This document shows positions 15,795 to 40,505 of a stretch of DNA of 64,000 bases, piece after piece. The stretch is from Alphaproteobacteria bacterium (lineage in GTDB: Bacteria > Pseudomonadota > Alphaproteobacteria > MPNO01). The stretch spans positions 1,376,001 to 1,440,000 of the forward strand of contig OZ219866.1 of assembly GCA_964291675.2 (NCBI GenBank). Direction: 5' to 3'. The stretch's first letter is position 1. Every line of letters starts with the position of its first letter. The position numbers and the translations under genes were made by a program. Under the pieces are notes generated by a model. It was not told where the DNA came from and searched no databases. It saw only the letters and a program-made list of their open reading frames with translations.

Positions 15795-15873
15795 ATGGAG
15801 TGGACGCCCCCTCCGACGGCATCTGTGTGCCAAAGTGGCGGTGTCATCAACCCACTTGGAGGAGGGAGCATCC

Positions 15874-16905
15874 ATGGCCGAGGTTAGCATGATCGGGATC
15901 GATCTTTCGAAGCGGAGTTTTCAGCTGCACGGGATGTGCGCGGACGGCTCGGTGGGTTTCCGCCGGACGCTGAGCCGCGGCAGGCTGCTCGCCTTTGTGG
16001 CGCGTCAGCCGCGCTGCGTGGTGGCGATGGAGGCGTGCGGGGGTGCGCATCACTGGGGTCGCGAGATCCTCGATCTGGGCCATGAGGTGCGGCTGGTGCC
16101 GCCGGTCTATGTGAAGCCCTTCGTGAAGCGCCAGAAGAACGATGCGGCGGATGCGGCGGCGATCTGCGAGGCGGCGTCGCGGCCGACCATGAGCCTGGTT
16201 GCGGTGAAGACGGCCGAGCAGCAGAGCCGCGGCATGCTGTTCCGGGTGCGCGATCTCCTGGTGCGCCAGCGCACCCAGGCGCTCGACGCGCTGCGCGGCC
16301 ATCTGGCGGAGTTCGGGCTGGTGGCGCCGAAGGGTCCGGCGAGTGTCGGCAAGCTCGCGGTGGCGCTGGAGGCTGCGCGGGCCGGTCTGCCGGACCGGGT
16401 GGGCGAGCTCGCCGGGGTGCTGCTGGAGCAGATCGCCGGGCTGGACGAACAGGTCGCCGAGCTCGACAAGGAGCTGCGCGCCGAGGCGCGGCGGGATGCG
16501 GATGCGCGCCGGCTGATGACCATACCGGGGGTCGGGCCGGTCACCGCGATGGCGATCCAGGCCTTCGCGCCGCCGCTCGACGGGTTCCGCCGCGGGCGCG
16601 ACTTCTCGGCCTGGCTCGGGCTGGTGCCGCGCCAGCACACGACGGCCGGCAAGCCGCGGCTGGGCAGGATATCGAAGATGGGCCAGCGCGATCTCAGGCG
16701 GCTCTTGGTGCTCGGCGCCATGTCGGTGGTCCGCAGCGCCGGGCGCCACGACACGGTGCGCGACCCGTGGCTGGCCGGGATGCTGGCCACCAGGAAGCCG
16801 AAGAAGCTGATCGCCGTGGCGCTGGCCAACCGCACCGCGCGCATCGCCTGGGCGATGACCACGAGACAGCAGAGCTACCGGGCGCCCGCGCCGAACACCG
16901 CCTGA
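15874..16905 (+). CDS. IS110-family DEDD recombinase/transposase
   Basis: IGIDLSK, VAMEACG, KNDAADA, IPGVGP, AWLGLVP, VALANR; GGAGG RBS. Confidence 0.97.
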   Translation: MAEVSMIGIDLSKRSFQLHGMCADGSVGFRRTLSRGRLLAFVARQPRCVVAMEACGGAHHWGREILDLGHEVRLVPPVYVKPFVKRQKNDAADAAAICEAASRPTMSLVAVKTAEQQSRGMLFRVRDLLVRQRTQALDALRGHLAEFGLVAPKGPASVGKLAVALEAARAGLPDRVGELAGVLLEQIAGLDEQVAELDKELRAEARRDADARRLMTIPGVGPVTAMAIQAFAPPLDGFRRGRDFSAWLGLVPRQHTTAGKPRLGRISKMGQRDLRRLLVLGAMSVVRSAGRHDTVRDPWLAGMLATRKPKKLIAVALANRTARIAWAMTTRQQSYRAPAPNTA

Positions 16906-17138
16906 GCGCGGCGGATGCGGGCCGCCGTCGGCAGTGCGGGCGAGGTCTGAGGACGGGTAAGGACAAACGGTCGATGAGACGGGATCGGGAAAACCAGTTT
17001 GATCCGGCGCGCCGAAGAGCACGCGTGCCCGTATGCCATACAGGCCCGCGGCGCCGCATAGGCCGCAAGCAGAGGCCGCATAGACGACAGCACCTGACCG
17101 CACTGTCCGAACCGTTCGAAAAAAAACCTTGCACCGCC
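16906..17138 (+). ncRNA. Putative bridge/seek RNA region of IS110 copy 1 (18-nt deletion in the target loop)
   Basis: Guides TTTGATCCG (16998-17006), GTGCCCG (17025-17031), CATAGACG (17079-17086); exact RNA ends unknown. Confidence 0.7.
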
Positions 17139-17300
17139 GGGGGCGTCCATAGACGGATCAAGTCCGGGCATGACGAGGGAGGGCCGGGGGCGACGGCGGC
17201 ATGCGACGACGCGTTGCGCGTGTCGCGATCCGTGTCCCGATCCGGCGGATGGGCCGGAAATCCGCGCGTACCGAGGCTTTGCGCCCGGTCCAGCTCATCC

Positions 17301-32900: not shown

Positions 32901-33014
32901 GCCGATCATTCATATCAAATTCGCATGTTATGATGACTTTTCGGTGTGGCTGGTCTATGGATGACGGGGCCGGCTCGCCGGCGGATGCGCCACGACCGCG
33001 AGAGAGGACGAGAG

Positions 33015-36000
33015 ATGGGACGGATGCTTTTCGGCAACACCGCGGACGCGACGGGCGGCGGGCGCCGCCCCTCCCCGGCCTGGCTCGCGCCGCTGCTGGT
33101 CCTCGCCCTCTGGGCGGCGGACGCGAAGGCGCAGACGGTCGCGCTGGTCGGCAATGTGGGGCAGTCCGGGACCGAGGGCGTCAGCCTCGGCGTCTGGGAC
33201 CTTGCCCAGAAGTTCACGACCGGAACGAACAGCGCCGGCTACGACCTGACCAGCGTCGAAGTACATCTGTTCACCAACGCCAACCTGGGTACCGACACCG
33301 CCGCCCCCCGGGTGCGCGTGGTCCGCGGGGCGGCGACGGGAACCGGCTCGGAGCCGGTCGCGACGCTGACCGCCGCGACGACGACGCTACCTGCCACCGC
33401 GCGGGCCAACTACACGTATACGGCGCCTACGCCGCCGCAGGGCATCGTGCTGCGCGCGTCGACCGACTACTGGGTGGTGGTCGAAGCAGCCTCCAGCGGC
33501 GGCGGCGACGTACACTTCTTCAACACCAATTCGAATGCGGAGGACGGCACCCCCGCGGCGGGCTGGAGCATCGACGATAGCGGGTTGCAACGAGCACACG
33601 ATTCGACCGGTGGCTTCGGCGCGGAAGATCGCGCCTACATGATCCGCGTCAACGGCAGCGTCAGGACCAACGTCCCCGCCACCGGCAAGCCGACGATCAC
33701 GGGCGTCGCGACCGTGGGCCGCCTGCTGCAGGCGAGCCGGGGCACCATCACGGACACCGAGGGGCTGCCCGCCGCGTTCGACTATCAGTGGATCCGGGTC
33801 GACGGGGCGACCGAGACCGACATCCAGGGCGCGGACTCGTCCACCTACCGGCTGGTCGACGCCGATGAGGGCAAGACGGTCAAGGTGAGGATGTCCTTCA
33901 CCGACCTTCGGGGCGGCATGGAATCGCGCACCAGCGACGCGTTTCCGTCGAGCGGGACCGTCCAGGCCGCGCCCGTCATCGTCGGCGGTCTCCATGTGAC
34001 CAATCTGGGGCAGGCCCGGGGCGGCGCCGACACTTTCGACCGGTTCGATGCCGCCCAGAAGTTCACCACCGGCACCAACGCCGGCGGCTACACGCTGAGC
34101 AGCGTCGACCTGCGGCTGGAGGTCGCCTCTCCCAATGTCTCGCACCCCGCGGTGAAGGTGGTCAAGGGGGCGCCGGCGGGCGAGGACTCGGAGGATGTCG
34201 CCACGCTCACCCCCCGGAGCAGGAACTTGATTGCGCATGCGGCCAACTTCGCCAGCTTCGGCGCGCCGCCGGGCATCAGGCTGGACCCGTCGACCGACTA
34301 CTGGGTGGTGGTCGAACGCAGCGGCGGCGACGCCATCCATCTGGCCTTGTCGGTCACCGCGTCGGATGCGGAGGACGGCAGCTCCGCGGCGGACTGGAGC
34401 ATCGCCGACACGGCCTTGTGGCGGGCCGCCGACTCCACCGGCGCGTTCGAGCGGAGGGTTCGCGGCGTGTCCTACATGATCCGCGTCGACGCCGTCGCCG
34501 GGGCCGCCGCCGGCGCGCCGACCGCCGCCGACGGCTCGGTGCGCACCCGCCCGGACACCGCGTACGCCTTCAGGGTGGACGATTTCGGCTATTCCGATCC
34601 CGACGGCGACGCGCTGGCGAGCGTGAAGATCGAGACCCTGCCCGCCTCCGGCAAGGGCGCGCTGACCCTCGACGGCAACGCCGTCGCCGCGGGGCAGGAC
34701 GTCGCCCGCGGCGACATCGAGGCGGGCGACCTGCAATACGCGCCGCCGGCGGGCGAGGCGGGCGAGGACTTCGCGAGCTTCACCTTCCGGGTGAACGACG
34801 GCACCGCCGACAGCGCGAACGCCGCCACCATGACCGTCCATGTCTCGACCGTCCAGGTCGAGAACGCGCCGCCGGTCGCCGCCGACGGCTCGGTGCGCAC
34901 CCGCCCGGACACCGGGTACGCCTTCAGGGTGGGCGATTTCGGCTATTCCGATCCCGACGGCGACGCGCTGGCGAGCGTGAAGATCGAGACCCTGCCCGCC
35001 TCCGGCAGGGGCACGCTGACGCTCGACGGCAGCGCCGTCACCGCGGGGCAGGCCGTCGCCCGCAGCGACATCGAGCTGGGCCGGCTGGAATACGCGCCGC
35101 CGGCGGGCGCGGCGGGCGAGAACCTGGCGAGCTTCACCTTCCGGGTGAGCGACGGCACCGCCGACAGCGCGAACGCCTACACCATGACCGTCCATGTCTC
35201 GACCGTCCGGGTCGAGAACGCGCCGCCGGTCGCCGCCGACGGCTCGGTGCGCATCGGCGCCGACGCCGAGTACGCCTTCAGGACGGGCGATTTCGGCTAT
35301 TCCGATGCCGACGGCGACGCGCTGGCGAACGTGAAGATCGAGACCCTGCCCGCTTCCGGCAGGGGCACGCTGACGCTCGGCGGCAGCGCCGTCGCGGCGG
35401 GGCAGGCCGTCGCCCGCAGCGACATCGAGGCGGGCAACCTGCGATACGCGCCGCCGGCGGGCGCGGCGGGCGAGGACTTCGCGAGCTTCACCTTCCGGGT
35501 GAGCGACGGGACCGTCGACAGCGCGGACGCCTACACCATGACCGTCCATGTCGGCAACCGGGCGCCGGTCGCCGCCGACGGCTCGGTGCGGATCGGCGCG
35601 GACACCGAATACGCCTTCAAGGTGGGCGATTTCGGCTATTCCGATGCCGACGGCGACGCGCTTGCCGGGATCGCGATCCGCACGCTGGCCGGCCTGCCGG
35701 CGGGAAGCGCGCTGCGGCTCGACGGCGCGCCGGTGAGGCCGGGCCAGGCCGTGACCCGGGCGCAGCTCGAGGCGGGCGGTCTGGTGTTCGTCCCGGAAGC
35801 GGGCGGGACGGGCAGCCCCTACGCGACGTTCTCCTTTACCGTGAGCGACGGGTTCGCGGACAGCGCGCCGGCCACGATGCGCGTCCATGTCGTCGGGCCG
35901 GGCGGCGAGCGGGCGGTCGGCGCCTGGGTGTCGCGCTTCGGGCGCACGGTGGCGGACCAGGTCGTGGCCGCGGTCGAGGGAAGGATGCGCGCCGCGCGGC

Positions 36001-37319
36001 GGCCGCAGGCGGAGGTGAGCCTCGCCGGCGGGCGGATCGGCCTGTTGCCGCCCCCGGGCGACGCCCGGGCGCCGGATCCCGGGGCGGAGCCCGCGCGGGC
36101 CGGCGCGACCCGGACCATGAGCGGCGGCGAGCTGCTGCTGGGCTCGTCCTTCGCGCTGACCGGCGCGGCGGCGGATGGCGGCTCGGCCGCGTTCTGGGGC
36201 GGCGCCGCGGTAACCCGCTTCGACGGGCGCGAGGACGGGCTCGCGGTCGACGGCGAGGTGACCGGCGCCATGCTGGGCGCCGACTGGCAGCGGGGAAGCT
36301 GGACCACCGGGCTCGTGGTCGCGCACAGCCAGGGCGAGGGCGGCTACCGCGAGGGCGGCGGCGGCGCGGCGCGCGGCTCCGTCGAGGCGACGCTGACCGG
36401 GCTCTACCCCTGGCTGCGGCTTGCGCCGGACGACCGGCTGGAGGCCTGGGGCGCGGCGGGCTACGGCGCCGGCGGGCTGCGGCTGGTGCCGGACGGCGGG
36501 GCGGCGACCCGCACCGACCTCGCCGCCTGGATGGCGGCGGCGGGGCTGCGCGGGGCGCTGCTCGACCCGGGCGGCGCGGGGCTGAGGCTGACCGCGAGGA
36601 CGGACGCCCTGTTCGCCGGCGCGTCGACCGACGCGGCGGGCTCGGGCGCCGGCCGGCTGGCGGCGGTCGAGGCCAGGGTCGCGCGGCTGCGGCTCGGGCT
36701 GGAGGGGGCGCTGCCGATGCGCCTCGGGCCGGGCTCGGCGCTGACGCCGGGGTTCGAGCTCGGCGCGCGCCATGACGGCGGCGACGCCGAGACCGGGCTC
36801 GGGGCGGATATCGGCGCGAGCCTCGCCTGGACCGACGCCGGGAGGGGGCTCTCGATGGAGCTCAGCGGGCGCGGGCTGCTGTCCCACAAGGCGAAGGGAT
36901 TCCGCGAGCGCGGCGTGTCGGCCGTCCTCCTGTGGCAGCCCGGGACGGACGCGCGCGGGCCGCGCCTCAGCCTCGCCCAGAGCCTCGGCGGCGCGTCGGC
37001 GGGCGGCGCCGCGGCGCTGCTCGGACGGACCACGCCGGCGACGCTCGCCAACCCCGGCGGGGGGGAGCTGAAGCGCCGCCGGCTGGAGGCGCGGCTGGGC
37101 TACGGCTTCGCCGCCTTCGGCAGCCGCTTCACCCTCACGCCGGAGGCCGGGTTCGGGCTGTCGCAGGCGGCGCGCGACTACAGGATCGGCTGGCGCCTGG
37201 CGCGGCGCCCCGGGCCGGGGCCCGGCTCGGCCGAGCTCTCCCTCGACGCGCGCCGCCGCGAGAGCGCCGCCGCGCCGCCGGTGCACGAGGGCAGGGTCCG
37301 GCTGACGGCGCGGTTCTGA
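33015..37319 (+). CDS. Autotransporter-like adhesin: two choice-of-anchor-R-like domains, four cadherin/Ig-like repeats, C-terminal beta-barrel
   Basis: Signal peptide, AQKFTTG..GY.L motifs, DFGYSDxDGD repeats, WVSRFGRTVA, LGARHDGGDAETG, terminal RF. Confidence 0.88.
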   Translation: MGRMLFGNTADATGGGRRPSPAWLAPLLVLALWAADAKAQTVALVGNVGQSGTEGVSLGVWDLAQKFTTGTNSAGYDLTSVEVHLFTNANLGTDTAAPRVRVVRGAATGTGSEPVATLTAATTTLPATARANYTYTAPTPPQGIVLRASTDYWVVVEAASSGGGDVHFFNTNSNAEDGTPAAGWSIDDSGLQRAHDSTGGFGAEDRAYMIRVNGSVRTNVPATGKPTITGVATVGRLLQASRGTITDTEGLPAAFDYQWIRVDGATETDIQGADSSTYRLVDADEGKTVKVRMSFTDLRGGMESRTSDAFPSSGTVQAAPVIVGGLHVTNLGQARGGADTFDRFDAAQKFTTGTNAGGYTLSSVDLRLEVASPNVSHPAVKVVKGAPAGEDSEDVATLTPRSRNLIAHAANFASFGAPPGIRLDPSTDYWVVVERSGGDAIHLALSVTASDAEDGSSAADWSIADTALWRAADSTGAFERRVRGVSYMIRVDAVAGAAAGAPTAADGSVRTRPDTAYAFRVDDFGYSDPDGDALASVKIETLPASGKGALTLDGNAVAAGQDVARGDIEAGDLQYAPPAGEAGEDFASFTFRVNDGTADSANAATMTVHVSTVQVENAPPVAADGSVRTRPDTGYAFRVGDFGYSDPDGDALASVKIETLPASGRGTLTLDGSAVTAGQAVARSDIELGRLEYAPPAGAAGENLASFTFRVSDGTADSANAYTMTVHVSTVRVENAPPVAADGSVRIGADAEYAFRTGDFGYSDADGDALANVKIETLPASGRGTLTLGGSAVAAGQAVARSDIEAGNLRYAPPAGAAGEDFASFTFRVSDGTVDSADAYTMTVHVGNRAPVAADGSVRIGADTEYAFKVGDFGYSDADGDALAGIAIRTLAGLPAGSALRLDGAPVRPGQAVTRAQLEAGGLVFVPEAGGTGSPYATFSFTVSDGFADSAPATMRVHVVGPGGERAVGAWVSRFGRTVADQVVAAVEGRMRAARRPQAEVSLAGGRIGLLPPPGDARAPDPGAEPARAGATRTMSGGELLLGSSFALTGAAADGGSAAFWGGAAVTRFDGREDGLAVDGEVTGAMLGADWQRGSWTTGLVVAHSQGEGGYREGGGGAARGSVEATLTGLYPWLRLAPDDRLEAWGAAGYGAGGLRLVPDGGAATRTDLAAWMAAAGLRGALLDPGGAGLRLTARTDALFAGASTDAAGSGAGRLAAVEARVARLRLGLEGALPMRLGPGSALTPGFELGARHDGGDAETGLGADIGASLAWTDAGRGLSMELSGRGLLSHKAKGFRERGVSAVLLWQPGTDARGPRLSLAQSLGGASAGGAAALLGRTTPATLANPGGGELKRRRLEARLGYGFAAFGSRFTLTPEAGFGLSQAARDYRIGWRLARRPGPGPGSAELSLDARRRESAAAPPVHEGRVRLTARF
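34527..35890 (+). repeat. Intragenic tandem repeats, 354/354/339-bp periodicity
   Basis: GCCGACGGCTCGGTGCG recurs at 34527, 34881, 35235 and 35574. Confidence 0.92.
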
Positions 37320-37327
37320 CCGTCGGC

Positions 37328-37436
37328 CGTCCTGCGATACGGCGCTACGCGCCTGCCCGGGATGAGGGCGGGGTCGAGCGGTCCGGGAAACTCCCCTCAT
37401 CCCGGGCAGCGCCCGCGGGGCGCGTATCGCGGGACG
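37328..37436. repeat. Family A variant with matched changes in both arms
   Basis: CGTCCTGCGATACG..CCTGCCCGGGATGAGG / CCTCATCCCGGGCAG..GCGTATCGCGGGACG. Confidence 0.85.
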
Positions 37437-37974
37437 CCGGCCGGTAAAACCCCTGCGCCTCGACCAGGAACGCGCGGTTGAGCCGGGCGCGGTAGTTCTC
37501 CATCGCCGCGGTGGCGGCGAGCTCGACGAGCTGGGCCTCGGAGAAGTGCGTCGCCGCCTCCGCGTAGACCGCGTCCGGCACCTCGGCCGGGGTTTGCGTG
37601 ATTCCCTCGGCGACGGCGAAGGCGGCCTTCTCGGCGGCGTCGAACAGGTCGCTGTCGCGCCAGGCGGCGACGGCGGCGATCTTCTCGTCGGTGCTTCCGG
37701 CGGCGCTGCTCCCGGCAGCGTTGGTGTCGATTCAGAACGGGCACTGGACGATCTGCGCGACGCGGACGCAGATCAGGTAGCGCAGATCGGCCGGCAGGGT
37801 GCCGCTGCGGGAAGGTGCCGCGCCGAGGATTTGCCCCGCCTTGAGGATCGGCGGGCAGCGCGCCTGGATTCCGGCGGTCGTCGTCGGCGCGCCCAACGCG
37901 CGGGCGGCCCGGTCCATCGCCTCGCGCGCCTCCCCGGGCGCCTCGTCGCGGGCCAGCGGCTTCAGTCTCGGCAT
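37345..37974 (-). CDS. AhpD/carboxymuconolactone-decarboxylase-family selenoprotein (CxxU; TGA at 37732-37734)
   Basis: One 630-nt frame: ..RVAQIVQ-C-P-F-TGA-IDTNAA..EKAAFAVAEGIT..HFSEAQLVEL..ENYRARLNRAF; hairpin 11 nt after the TGA. Confidence 0.85.
37704..37720 (-). promoter_or_regulatory. Putative bacterial SECIS hairpin
   Basis: CGCTGC-CGGGA-GCAGCG starting 11 nt 3' of the TGA, G among the first two loop positions. Confidence 0.7.
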
Positions 37975-38126
37975 GGCGGTCCCCCTCGCGGATGGCGGGG
38001 AGGATGGTAGAGCCCATGCGTCGTGGATGGAACCGCGGCCGCCCTTCGATAGGGGCTTATATGGATGGGTTGACGGGCGGTCGGCTGGCGCAGACCGCCG
38101 ACGGGAACGCCGCCCCGCCCCACCCC

Positions 38127-38147
38127 GTCATGCCCGGACTTGATCCG
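38127..38147. repeat. Family B half-site at the right end of IS110 copy 2
   Basis: GTCATGCCCGGACTTGATCCG; continues as GGCACCCA at 39526. Confidence 0.9.
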
Positions 38148-38162
38148 TCTATGGACGCCCCC

Positions 38163-38412
38163 GGCGGTGCAAGGTTTTTTTCGAACGGTTCGGACAGTGC
38201 GGTCAGGTGCTGTCGTCTATGCGGCCTCTGCTTGCGGCCTGTGTGGCGCCGCGGGCCTGTATGGCATACGCGGATCGGGTCCAAATCGGGCACGCGTGCT
38301 CTTCGGCGCGCCGGATCAAGCTGGTTTTCCCGATCCCGTCTCATCGACCGTTTGTCCTTACCCGTCCTCAGACCTCGCCCGCACTGCCGACGGCGGCCCG
38401 CATCCGCCGCGC
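38163..38412 (-). ncRNA. Putative bridge/seek RNA region of IS110 copy 2
   Basis: Stem GGATCGGG/CCCGATCC encloses guides CTTGATCCG (38320-38312) and GTGCCCG (38293-38287); second loop with CCAT and CATAGACG (38221-38214); exact RNA ends unknown. Confidence 0.82.
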
Positions 38413-39444
38413 TCAGGCGGTGTTCGGCGCGGGCGCCCGGTAGCTCTGCTGTCTCGTGGTCATCGCCCAGGCGATGCGCGCGGTGCGGTTGGCCAGCGCC
38501 ACGGCGATCAGCTTCTTCGGCTTCCTGGTGGCCAGCATCCCGGCCAGCCACGGGTCGCGCACCGTGTCGTGGCGCCCGGCGCTGCGGACCACCGACATGG
38601 CGCCGAGCACCAGGAGCCGCCTGAGATCGCGCTGGCCCATCTTCGATATCCTGCCCAGCCGCGGCTTGCCGGCCGTCGTGTGCTGGCGCGGCACCAGCCC
38701 GAGCCAGGCCGAGAAGTCGCGCCCGCGGCGGAACCCGTCGAGCGGCGGCGCGAAGGCCTGGATCGCCATCGCGGTGACCGGCCCGACCCCCGGTATGGTC
38801 ATCAGCCGGCGCGCATCCGCATCCCGCCGCGCCTCGGCGCGCAGCTCCTTGTCGAGCTCGGCGACCTGTTCGTCCAGCCCGGCGATCTGCTCCAGCAGCA
38901 CCCCGGCGAGCTCGCCCACCCGGTCCGGCAGACCGGCCCGCGCAGCCTCCAGCGCCACCGCGAGCTTGCCGACACTCGCCGGACCCTTCGGCGCCACCAG
39001 CCCGAACTCCGCCAGATGGCCGCGCAGCGCGTCGAGCGCCTGGGTGCGCTGGCGCACCAGGAGATCGCGCACCCGGAACAGCATGCCGCGGCTCTGCTGC
39101 TCGGCCGTCTTCACCGCAACCAGGCTCATGGTCGGCCGCGACGCCGCCTCGCAGATCGCCGCCGCATCCGCCGCATCGTTCTTCTGGCGCTTCACGAAGG
39201 GCTTCACATAGACCGGCGGCACCAGCCGCACCTCATGGCCCAGATCGAGGATCTCGCGACCCCAGTGATGCGCGCCCCCGCACGCCTCCATCGCCACCAC
39301 GCAGCGCGGCTGACGCGCCAGAAAGGCGAGCAGCCTGCCGCGGCTCAGCGTCCGGCGGAAACCCACCGAGCCGTCCGCGCACATCCCGTGCAGCTGAAAA
39401 CTCCGCTTCGAAAGATCGATCCCGATCATGCTAACCTCGGCCAT
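38413..39444 (-). CDS. IS110-family DEDD recombinase/transposase
   Basis: Same protein as 15874-16905 except one V/L difference seen. Confidence 0.97.
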   Translation of the reverse strand: MAEVSMIGIDLSKRSFQLHGMCADGSVGFRRTLSRGRLLAFLARQPRCVVAMEACGGAHHWGREILDLGHEVRLVPPVYVKPFVKRQKNDAADAAAICEAASRPTMSLVAVKTAEQQSRGMLFRVRDLLVRQRTQALDALRGHLAEFGLVAPKGPASVGKLAVALEAARAGLPDRVGELAGVLLEQIAGLDEQVAELDKELRAEARRDADARRLMTIPGVGPVTAMAIQAFAPPLDGFRRGRDFSAWLGLVPRQHTTAGKPRLGRISKMGQRDLRRLLVLGAMSVVRSAGRHDTVRDPWLAGMLATRKPKKLIAVALANRTARIAWAMTTRQQSYRAPAPNTA

Positions 39445-39523
39445 GGATGCTCCCTCCTCCAAGTGGGTTGATGACACCGCCACTTTGGCACACAGATGCC
39501 GTCGGAGGGGGCGTCCACTCCAT

Positions 39524-39713
39524 CGGGCACCCACTGGCGCCGCCGCCCCTCTCGTCGGACCGTCGTGCGGGCGGAGAGGCCGCGTGGATGGCCGGATCAA
39601 GTCCGGCCATGACGTAGGGGTGACAGCGGGAGCGGAGATGCAGATGCTCACGGGCGCGGAGCCCGCGTCGAAGGCTAAACCGGACAGCAGTGGAACAAGT
39701 CCGGCCATGACGG
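39524..39713. repeat. Family B element remainder plus a second truncated arm with the 17-bp conserved end
   Basis: CGGGCACCCA...TGGATGGCCGGATCAAGTCCGGCCATGAC; AAACCGGACAGCAGTGG-AACAAGTCCGGCCATGAC. Confidence 0.85.
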
Positions 39714-39737
39714 CTTGGCGGAATGGACCGACCCGGC

Positions 39738-40505
39738 CTAGATCGCCCGGTAGCCGCCGTCGGCCATGACGATGCCGCCGGTGACGTAGCCGGCGAGGTC
39801 GGAGGCGAGGAAGATGGCGGGGCCCACGATGTCCTCGGGCTTGCCGGTGCGCCCGAGCGGGGTGTGGTCGAGGAAGAGTTTTACGAGCTCCGGGTTGCGC
39901 GCCCGGGCGGCGGCGTTCAGCGGGGTCTCGATCAGCCCGGGGCCGATCGCGTTGACCCGCACCCCGTCCTTGCCGAGCTCGGCGGCGAGCGCGCGGGTGA
40001 AGCCGAGCACGCCGTGCTTGGAGGTGGTGTAGGCGATGCTGTTGGGCGTCCTGACATGCAGGAAGGACTGGATCGAGCCGATATTGACCACCCGCCCGCG
40101 ATTGGCGCGGAGCTGGCCGAGGAAGGCCCGGGTGACGTTGAACACGCCGTCGAGGTTGACCCGCATGATGTCGTCCCAATCGCCCGCCACCGCCGCTGCA
40201 TCGCCGGTGACCGGGTTGCGCCGGTTGATGCCGGCGTTGTTGACCAGGATCGAGATCTCGCCGATGGAGCCGGCGATGTCCGCGGCGGCCGCCACGCAGG
40301 CGGCGCGGTCGCGCACGTCGAGCGTCATCGCATGCGCGGCGTGTCCGGCCCCGGCGATCTCGTCCCGCACCGCTTGCGCCGCCGCGCCGTCGATGTCGAG
40401 CACGACCACCTCGGCGCCCTGATCCGCATAGCCCAGCGCGATCGCGCGGCCGATCCCGGAAGCGCCGCCGGTGACCGCGGCGCGGTGTCCTTCGAGCAGG
40501 TTCAT
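39738..40505 (-). CDS. SDR family oxidoreductase
   Basis: TGGASGIG, NNAG, YTTSK, VNAIGPG. Confidence 0.95.
   Translation of the reverse strand: MNLLEGHRAAVTGGASGIGRAIALGYADQGAEVVVLDIDGAAAQAVRDEIAGAGHAAHAMTLDVRDRAACVAAAADIAGSIGEISILVNNAGINRRNPVTGDAAAVAGDWDDIMRVNLDGVFNVTRAFLGQLRANRGRVVNIGSIQSFLHVRTPNSIAYTTSKHGVLGFTRALAAELGKDGVRVNAIGPGLIETPLNAAARARNPELVKLFLDHTPLGRTGKPEDIVGPAIFLASDLAGYVTGGIVMADGGYRAI

Follow-up and report, generated by a model that had tools for sequence, protein, structure and literature searches.

A REP-targeting insertion sequence of the IS1111 group with a conserved downstream RNA that very probably acts as a bridge RNA

RNA-guided recombination by IS110 and IS1111 elements, with REP targets, two-nucleotide cores and transposases of ~340 residues, has reportedly been in print since 2024. 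In the passages of the literature on which we draw, members of the IS1111 group have subterminal inverted repeats (7-17 bp) bordered by short extensions at the termini and carry their longer non-coding region downstream of the gene, and IS4321 and IS5075 are treated as IS1111-family members in seekRNA and bridge RNA papers. The parts of Siddiquee et al. 2024 (PMC11187229) used here report that an RNA from the downstream non-coding region of IS1111-family elements co-purifies with the transposase (330-350 aa in this family) and is essential, that two short segments of this RNA match the two target strands, with the top-strand-complementary segment lying 5', and that the seekRNA exists in two forms, a long one (145-170 nt) and a short one (70-100 nt). 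For ISEc11, an 82-nt short RNA sufficed in assays and the role of the long form was left open, according to the same parts of that paper (PMC11187229). The corresponding sections of Durrant et al. 2024 (PMC11208160) predict that 93% of IS1111 entries carry a bridge RNA in their right end, and that in many IS1111 elements the donor guides are located in a multi-loop. A junction promoter has been described for ISEc11, judging by the discussion sections and reference lists of these papers.

The locus analyzed here lies on the minus strand of a 64,000-nt stretch of DNA, which we refer to as the window. We conclude that it is very probably a member of the IS1111 group of the IS110 family in which a structured RNA of ~165 nt, located downstream of a DEDD transposase gene, acts as a bridge RNA (or long seekRNA). 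The element belongs to a known class, and it is a clear example of the mechanism described in 2024 that introduces no new principle.

The element, its transposase and its insertion sites

The host genome (two contigs, 4.8 Mb in total, ~69% G+C) contains four copies of the element, A to D, which have identical ends. Copy A, an IS110-family element of the IS1111 group, spans 1376 bp when the flanking CG cores are excluded (Table 1), copy B is located at 328342-329717 on contig C2, and copy D is the other one that lies in the window; C and D each share 98% identity with copy A. Alignment of the four copies together with their flanks places the ends at ...GGGTGCC-CG/ATGGAGT...CCATAGA/CG-GATCAAGTCC, and the element reads from ATGGAGT-GGACGCCCCC at the left end to GGGGGCGTCC-ATAGA at the right, where it is followed by the flank CG-GATCAAGTCCGGGCATGACG. 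The subterminal inverted repeats form a perfect 10-bp match and are set 7 nt and 5 nt from the tips. Non-coding sequence amounts to 265 nt on the 3' side of the transposase gene compared to 79 nt on the 5' side.

Table 1. Features of copy A, its target and its second copy in the window (positions are those of the window)
Feature	Position	Strand	Basis
Whole IS element (copy A)	38148..39523	-	four-copy alignment, exact motif positions and uninterrupted target copies
Transposase gene, 343 aa + stop	38413..39444	-	ORF; Pfam, NCBIfam, structure alignments
Left end: 7-nt extension ATGGAGT + subterminal inverted repeat GGACGCCCCC	39507..39523	-	copy alignment
Right end: subterminal inverted repeat GGGGGCGTCC (38162-38153) + 5-nt extension ATAGA (38152-38148)	38148..38162	-	
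Target left half + core: GTGCC (39530-39526), CG (39525-39524), in 5' arm of REP stem	39524..39530	-	
Core CG (38147-38146) + target right half GATCAAG (38145-38139)	38139..38147	-	
3' non-coding region, 265 nt	38148..38412	-	sequence read on minus strand
Conserved 165-nt RNA core (probable bridge RNA or long seekRNA), GTAAGG to 3' strand of outer helix	38197..38361	-	39-RNA alignment, consensus fold, covariance model
Outer helix P1: GGTCG (38349-38345) with TGACC (38205-38201)	38201..38349	-	consensus fold, pair counts
Target-binding loop module: basal stem P2, GGATCGGG (38336-38329) with CCCGATCC (38279-38272), enclosing both target guides; P2b, CC/GG; apical hairpin P3, GCGC/GCAC (38309-38296), alternatively GCGCG/CGCGU	38272..38336	-	
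Right-target guide CTTGATCCG, complementary to top strand CGGATCAAG	38312..38320	-	motif match, shuffles, covariation
Left-target guide GTGCCCG, identical to top strand, complementary to bottom strand	38287..38293	-	motif match, shuffles, covariation
Left-end donor guide remnant CCAT (weak)	38261..38264	-	orthologues CTCCAT = reverse complement of left-end ATGGAG
Second hairpin: P4, GGCC (38257-38254) with GGCC (38226-38223); P5, GCGGC (38252-38248) with GCCGC (38238-38234)	38223..38257	-	
Right-end donor guide CATAGACG = right-end tip CATAGA + core CG	38214..38221	-	motif match, shuffles, covariation
TTGCAC, possible -35 box; promoter would be completed only in circle	38167..38172	-	inference
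Copy D, second copy in window, 1359 bp	15795..17153	+	genome search, copy alignment

Two Pfam models match the transposase, PF01548 (DEDD_Tnp_IS110) with E 1.4e-12 and PF02371 (Transposase_20) with E 2.6e-22, and the NCBIfam equivalog NF033542 ('IS110 family RNA-guided transposase') gives a score of 319 bits relative to a cut-off of 140. Significant matches to solved structures are seen in the C-terminal domain only, with ISCro4 (9t56, E 8.6e-13) and IS621 (8wt6, E 1e-10). In the N-terminal alignment, residues D10, E53, D90 and D93, which lie in IGID, AMEA and KNDAAD, stand opposite IGID, IEA and KTDxxD of IS621 and ISCro4, and we take these four residues to be the catalytic residues of the DEDD transposase. 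Over residues 1-337, the protein shares 39-40% identity with annotated IS4321 and IS5075 family transposases, and the best match in a plasmid collection, with 66.6% identity, is annotated as an 'IS110 family transposase' on a Methylocystis plasmid. The nucleophile motif of relatives, GL-P----S/T-G, reads GLVPRQHTTA in this protein, in which T257 is kept and A258 replaces glycine. An S/T-G pair is found in 41 of 45 unique relatives, other residues are present at the regex match in two more, and one has no match; among the orthologous proteins examined, TA at this position is confined to this genome's two protein variants.

The element flanks are two parts of a single REP hairpin, and the insertion lies at a CG inside the REP stem. 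Uninterrupted, the exact 14-mer GTGCC-CG-GATCAAG occurs 67 times in the genome, and all but one of these copies (66 of 67) carry the full 20-mer; with four of 71 perfect sites occupied, 67 perfect targets are empty. Copies C and D sit in a larger composite repeat, of which three unoccupied paralogues are also present, with flanks that overlap by exactly CG. All four copies are inserted at the same CG in the same orientation, and the empty sites share exactly CG, which means that insertion is precise and orientation-specific, taking place at the CG core without any other duplication. A preliminary description, made from the sequence alone, had called this locus a 343-aa IS110/IS1111 recombinase with a CG core, a REP target and an RNA encoded 3' of the coding sequence as in IS1111. 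The recombinase assignment is upheld by the Pfam and NF033542 matches and the 39-40% identity over the full length to IS4321 and IS5075 proteins, the core and target are borne out by the four copies, the 67 free 14-mers and the three empty paralogues, and the element ends that it had deduced are those given by the four-copy alignment. The placement of the RNA agrees with the 265-nt 3' region and with its conserved fold, to which we now turn.

Guide segments and conserved fold of the downstream RNA

Every string quoted in the preliminary description is present on the minus strand where it was placed. The left half of the target plus the core is identical to the left-target guide, which is followed in the RNA by AT, the first two bases of the left end, and the core plus the right half of the target is the reverse complement of the right-target guide. 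Chance was assessed using 20,000 dinucleotide-preserving shuffles of the non-coding region minus its last 22 nt, which were left out because they match the junction trivially. The core-anchored 9-mer matching the right half of the target (CTTGATCCG) was reached in 11 of the 20,000 shuffles and the core-anchored 7-mer matching the left half (GTGCCCG) in 870, and none of the 20,000 contained both. The claim that CTTGATCCG corresponds to one target strand and GTGCCCG to the other, each as far as the CG core, stands. As for the donor matches claimed at the same time, the 8-nt match of CATAGACG to the right-end tip and core, which was reached in 62 of 20,000 shuffles and recurs in 38 of 39 RNAs, is upheld, but the CCAT match is not above chance; it has only 4 nt and stops short of the core, and core-anchored matches of at least 4 nt are so common in shuffles (14,711 of 20,000) that CCAT alone is no evidence.

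A scan using one genome per species gave at least 536 confirmed relatives among 599 candidate stretches, and the orthologue analysis employed the best 80 of these at least 536 relatives (58-75% identity), which come from Alphaproteobacteria, Vicinamibacterales, Longimicrobiales, Binatia, Nitrospinota and other groups and are represented mostly by metagenome-assembled genomes. Orthologue ends were located by a script that searched for the core, AT(G/A)G plus three bases and the repeat, mirrored at the right end. No recognisable end pair was present at 14 of the 80 loci, and four more were without a right repeat within two mismatches. The end search yielded 66 elements, including this genome's four copies, of which we kept the 59 that have a non-coding region of 240-310 nt and no more than one mismatch between the repeats, and dropped seven (L042, L046, L055, L063, L084, L087 and L107). 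The 59 elements contain 41 distinct non-coding regions, which align along the whole conserved core, and the variable blocks of this alignment coincide exactly with the four matching segments of copy A. Indels of 1 and 2 nt between orthologues rule out the possibility that the region is coding sequence.

For fold prediction, the 165-nt core of copy A was aligned with those of 38 orthologues, copies B and C being omitted. RNAalifold applied to these 39 RNAs, which come from several phyla, gives 28 pairs in six helices (P1, P2, P2b, the 4-bp P3, P4 and P5), and pair counting shows that 98.4% of cells are paired and that 13 of the 28 pairs have changed on both sides; one pair in P1, for example, has gone from G-C to A-U on both sides in 10 sequences. 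In controls, none of 500 shuffles reached any of five measures, and partners slid by 1-3 columns pair in only 19-47% of cases. The target guides are located in an internal loop between P2b and P3, and the donor-matching segments both lie in a multi-loop that is closed by P1. Moreover, P2 has many G.U pairs, which would be C.A on the other strand, and this pattern fits an RNA read from the transposase strand. Pair 58/69, the second pair of P3, is C.A in this genome's copies, for which an alternative 5-bp pairing, GCGCG/CGCGU, can be drawn.

A covariance model built from the alignment finds exactly four hits in the genome, which are the four IS copies, and gives no free-standing RNA gene in that scan. 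Copies A and B score ~155 bits (154.8 for copy A) and copies C and D score 100.5. An 18-nt deletion in copies C and D removes the 3' strands of P2b and P2, with the result that the target loop of these two copies is unable to close, and RNA would have to be supplied to them by copy A or B. Copies A and B have identical genes and show four differences in their non-coding regions, one at the first base of the right-target guide and the others in the P5 loop. The first base of this guide is C in copy A, giving full complementarity to the target, and T in copies B, C and D, giving a G.U pair. Folded as single sequences, the whole non-coding region (z = -1.34; 15 of 200 shuffles fold as well) and the 165-nt core (z = -1.92; 10 of 200 shuffles are as good) are both only weakly better than shuffles; some pairing between the two guides is predicted by such folding for the free RNA. 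The 60 nt that follow the in-frame TGA of the neighbouring gene fold no better than shuffles (z = -0.13). Searching positions 37900-39800 against Rfam 15 with E values up to 1 placed no RNA family over the region, and a hit to ASdes inside the transposase gene is at chance level, with 21 bits where the gathering score is 40.

Covariation of guides with targets and element ends

Target guides were compared with flanks in 46 unique guide/flank combinations obtained from the 59 events, after two events with flanks that are too short had been dropped. The score was the longest word common to a guide block and the matching flank, which we preferred to a fixed register because subgroups differ, by 1-2 nt, in the register of the right-target guide; in one of these, the guide is shifted by 1-2 nt and the first core base is left unpaired. 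For each guide, the longest cognate match has a median of 7 nt compared to 3 nt for non-cognate combinations, and the summed guide/target score is reached by none of 10,000 target permutations. One choice, made for element L062, in which the right end is duplicated, favours the guide reading: use of the flank beyond the distal copy raises its score from 3 to 8. Further support is provided by near-identical elements that show single-base guide differences matching their own flanks, namely L031 (GTAAGCG) and L034 (GTAACCG), L040 (AAGTCCG) and L070 (AAGTGCG), and L073 (TTGAGCCG) and L075 (TTGATCCG), the last two being present in one genome. In addition, elements with a TG core have TG and CA at the corresponding guide positions. 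Covariation of guides and targets across orthologues, which the preliminary description had put forward as a check on its reading, is thus found.

The right-end donor guide behaves in a similar manner. In 38 of the 39 RNAs, the 7 nt that follow the second hairpin repeat the final 5 nt of the right end together with the core. This segment occurs as 10 distinct sequences, the core dinucleotide within it (CG or TG) always agrees with that of the target guides, and its identity to the right end and core was reached by none of 10,000 permutations. The segment before the second hairpin is almost invariant, being CTCCAT in most RNAs, and one subgroup of four has CGCCAT together with ATGGCG. For this left-end donor guide, the family-wide permutation result is not significant (1009 of 10,000), and the copies of this genome have lost 1 nt from it and match at four of six positions. 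On balance, we lean slightly towards the view that the 165-nt long form in this IS1111 subfamily is a true bispecific bridge, in which the donor guide has been selected to pair with the right-end tip and core, making donor recognition RNA-programmable. Were this the case, donor recognition would not be left to protein reading of the subterminal repeats, contrary to what the sufficiency of the short seekRNA suggested.

Proposed mechanism, alternatives and related elements

The anatomy and boundaries of the element, its free targets, the conserved fold and the covariation of the guides with targets and right end are directly supported by these data. Production of the RNA, its binding by the transposase and the chemistry of recombination would be as in the published relatives. 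On this model, the element would excise as a circle joining ...CCATAGA-CG-ATGGAG..., and a promoter at the circle junction would yield a transcript carrying both transposase and RNA. The guides in the internal loop would each pair with one REP strand, both ending at the CG core, and this core end of the target guides would set the site and orientation of insertion. The multi-loop segments would in turn match the joined ends of the circle, the right-end tip and core strongly and the first bases of the left end weakly in this copy, and the RNA-bound transposase would then recombine the circle junction with the REP by strand exchange at CG.

A junction promoter is suggested by TTGCAC-17 nt-GACGAT, which spans the predicted junction; the second hexamer consists of the core with two bases of the right-end tip before it and two of the left-end tip after it. 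TTG[CT]NN is located exactly 17 nt upstream of the junction hexamer in 33 of 41 unique orthologues, and such a box would become part of a promoter only once the element is circular. A scan of positions 38050-39650 found neither sigma-70-like promoters nor intrinsic terminators. In two sponge metatranscriptome runs, about a tenth of the sampled words are present, and run X2 has an exact 88-nt contig over 38321-38408 together with three contigs that stop where the guide begins and hence derive from relatives with other guides. We do not count the metatranscriptome contigs as expression because their depth is low (2.7-4.9) and DNA carry-over is possible; they also tell neither strand nor ends, and stretches that they leave uncovered were given no weight. 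In run X3, a joint that skips the element was considered as an empty allele and rejected, since it has one differing letter and a side of 25 nt and most likely represents another REP copy.

Three other explanations need to be weighed against this model. The locus might be a member of the class whose copies in this genome are decaying and immobile on their own, with an RNA that is a relic or works weakly, and we regard this as rather unlikely. The T257-A258 pair in place of S/T-G would be consistent with decay, and the S-G pair is required in the related Piv invertase, as stated in the parts of PMC11187229 that we have used, but the same source describes TA as an occasional natural variant found in genuine IS1111 members. 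The C.A mismatch in the 4-bp apical stem is likewise a possible lesion, with the alternative 5-bp pairing counting against it. The nucleotide lost from the left-end donor guide, the two of four copies that are without 18 nt of the target-loop stems, and the 67 perfect targets that are still empty also point to decay, and against these stand four intact reading frames that are 98-100% identical and the identity in gene of copies A and B at unrelated loci, which suggests recent movement.

Alternatively, only the target loop might guide, as in a short seekRNA, with the protein reading the ends through the subterminal repeats; the tip sequence repeated inside the element would then be a second protein-binding DNA site or have some other role. 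We consider this distinctly improbable even though an 82-nt RNA sufficed for ISEc11 in the portions of PMC11187229 consulted, so that donor segments are perhaps dispensable, and the left-end donor guide is without significant covariation. An identical direct repeat would, we infer, covary under protein recognition too; the tip repeat, however, occupies the same position throughout in a conserved multi-loop whose closing helix covaries, and in every case contains the core, CG or TG, that the target guides also carry, and it is these features that favour RNA pairing over double reading by the protein. Donor guides in a multi-loop are, in addition, those predicted for many IS1111 elements in the text of PMC11208160 cited above. 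It is extremely improbable, finally, that the matches act at the level of DNA, like the single-strand guides of IS200/IS605, or are due to chance or to REP leftovers within the element, even though the host is rich in REP copies and REP-like words are common in its genome. The protein is a DEDD enzyme of the IS110 family rather than an HUH enzyme, the scaffold is found in other phyla with unrelated, non-REP targets that the guides follow, the G.U pairs in the helix would be C.A on the other strand, and no shuffle among 20,000 gave both anchored matches.

The subfamily is a clean natural data set for IS1111, the less studied branch, in which a 165-nt scaffold has been kept across several phyla with at least 46 distinct guide/target pairs, 10 donor-guide variants, a variable register of the right guide and a CG or TG core. 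These data bear on a point that is open in the literature, namely the role of the long seekRNA and of its donor-matching segments, and could guide the choice of IS1111-type enzymes for engineering. The subfamily also shows natural retargeting by single bases within one genome, and its RNA-deleted copies would depend on RNA supplied in trans. The preliminary description overstated the novelty of the system, however: readable guides are usual for the published class, as are a REP target, a CG core and a protein of 343 aa. This subfamily may already be included in the supplementary tables published with Durrant et al. and Siddiquee et al.

Among described elements, ISPpu9 and ISPpu10 of Pseudomonas putida resemble the present element in being IS110-family members that reside in REP sequences, some copies having a downstream small RNA gene, as described in the parts of Pares-Guillen et al. 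2025 (PMC12288879) used here. In that account, the sRNA downstream of ISPpu9 is not required and moves separately, whereas free-standing RNA copies are absent from the genome studied here. IS621, as presented in the passages of PMC11208160 on which we draw and in structure 8wt6 and related entries, has a bispecific RNA with guides for both strands of target and donor, to which the RNA proposed here would correspond; it shares with our element a 2-nt core and DEDD and Tnp domains, and it also targets a REP, to judge by a title in a reference list. It differs from our element, within those passages, in that here the RNA is at the 3' and not the 5' end, the guides come in the opposite order, the subterminal repeats are long, and the donor guides lie in a multi-loop rather than in an internal loop. 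There is also a likeness in organization to ISEc11, ISPa11, ISKpn4 and ISPst6, the seekRNA elements of PMC11187229, which, in the sections of that paper drawn on here, have a transposase of ~340 aa, subterminal inverted repeats and a long downstream non-coding region. Relative to those elements, this one has a distant transposase, a different REP, a CG core and TA at the nucleophile motif. Nevertheless, in both cases two segments of the RNA match both target strands and overlap at the insertion point, with the top-strand-complementary segment on the 5' side, the conserved core, at 165 nt, falls within the 145-170 nt published for the long form, and relatives of the seekRNA elements of that source show natural retargeting, as do those in this subfamily.

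Guide and core variation among orthologous elements

Two copies of one orthologous element within the same metagenome-assembled genome (L073 and L075) carry right-target guides, the RNA segments that match one strand of the REP target up to the core, that differ by a single base (TTGAGCCG versus TTGATCCG, respectively), and the matching REP variant adjoins each copy. This pair is a case of natural single-base retargeting inside one genome. Variation is also seen in the core, with L059, L061, L067, L080 and L089 having CA at the right junction versus CG both at the left junction and in the donor guide (the RNA segment equal to the right-end tip plus core). At these loci the element may have inserted into a target whose core was mismatched. 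In L059 and L061, moreover, UG is present at the core position of the right-target guide, which would pair with CA or, via wobble, with CG. The right end of L062, comprising the repeat, the tip and CG, is duplicated at a spacing of 30 nt, and a guide match is found only in the flank beyond the distal copy.

REP targets, element copies and other genes in the host genome

The host genome contains a large, genome-wide REP family composed of GTCATGCCCGGACTTGATCCGGGCA and its variants. Sequences matching the IS flanks number more than 100, often occurring as inverted pairs separated by about 50 nt and in arrays, and the exact 14-nt IS target occurs in 67 REP copies. In the second IS copy of the window (copy D), the two basal helices of the target loop have lost their 3' strands to an 18-nt deletion, and the identical deletion is found in copy C, which is located elsewhere in the genome. 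Copies C and D are each inserted in a composite repeat of approximately 270 bp, of which three further examples are unoccupied. Another locus, L005, is 67% identical to part of the IS transposase gene and is probably a second, more distant IS110-family element.

Directly downstream of the IS lies an AhpD-like gene of the carboxymuconolactone decarboxylase family, in which an in-frame TGA occupies the second cysteine position of a C-P-F-x motif. On read-through, the Pfam CMD domain extends across this TGA (residues 57-123, E 2e-13), and the genome encodes a tRNA-Sec adjoined by selB (455.7 bits versus a cut-off of 242). The gene is probably a selenoprotein gene rather than a broken one; folding of the hairpin located 3' of the TGA is not better than that of shuffled sequences. 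Within a very long open frame of 1457 aa, a unit of about 100 aa recurs several times almost unchanged (…VAADGSVR…DFGYSDPDGDAL…), and the C-terminal part of the frame looks like an outer-membrane anchor.

Coordinates of features in the window and elsewhere
Feature	Location	Strand
Copy D	window 15795-17153	plus
1457-aa open frame	window 32946-37319	plus
AhpD-like gene	window 37343-37974	minus
REP example	window 38100-38147	
REP example	window 39560-39720	
L005	G000:C2:1586610-1586936	
tRNA-Sec	C2:2837312-2837407	
Duplicated right end	L062:2780-2840	

Possible horizontal spread of the element type

Loci L031-L110, the best 80 of at least 536 relatives, include near-identical RNA scaffolds and transposases of 66-75% identity in genomes whose assignments span several phyla. 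Sponge metatranscriptome contigs (runs X1 and X2) also contain related guide variants. Taken together, these observations suggest horizontal spread of this IS type within one habitat.
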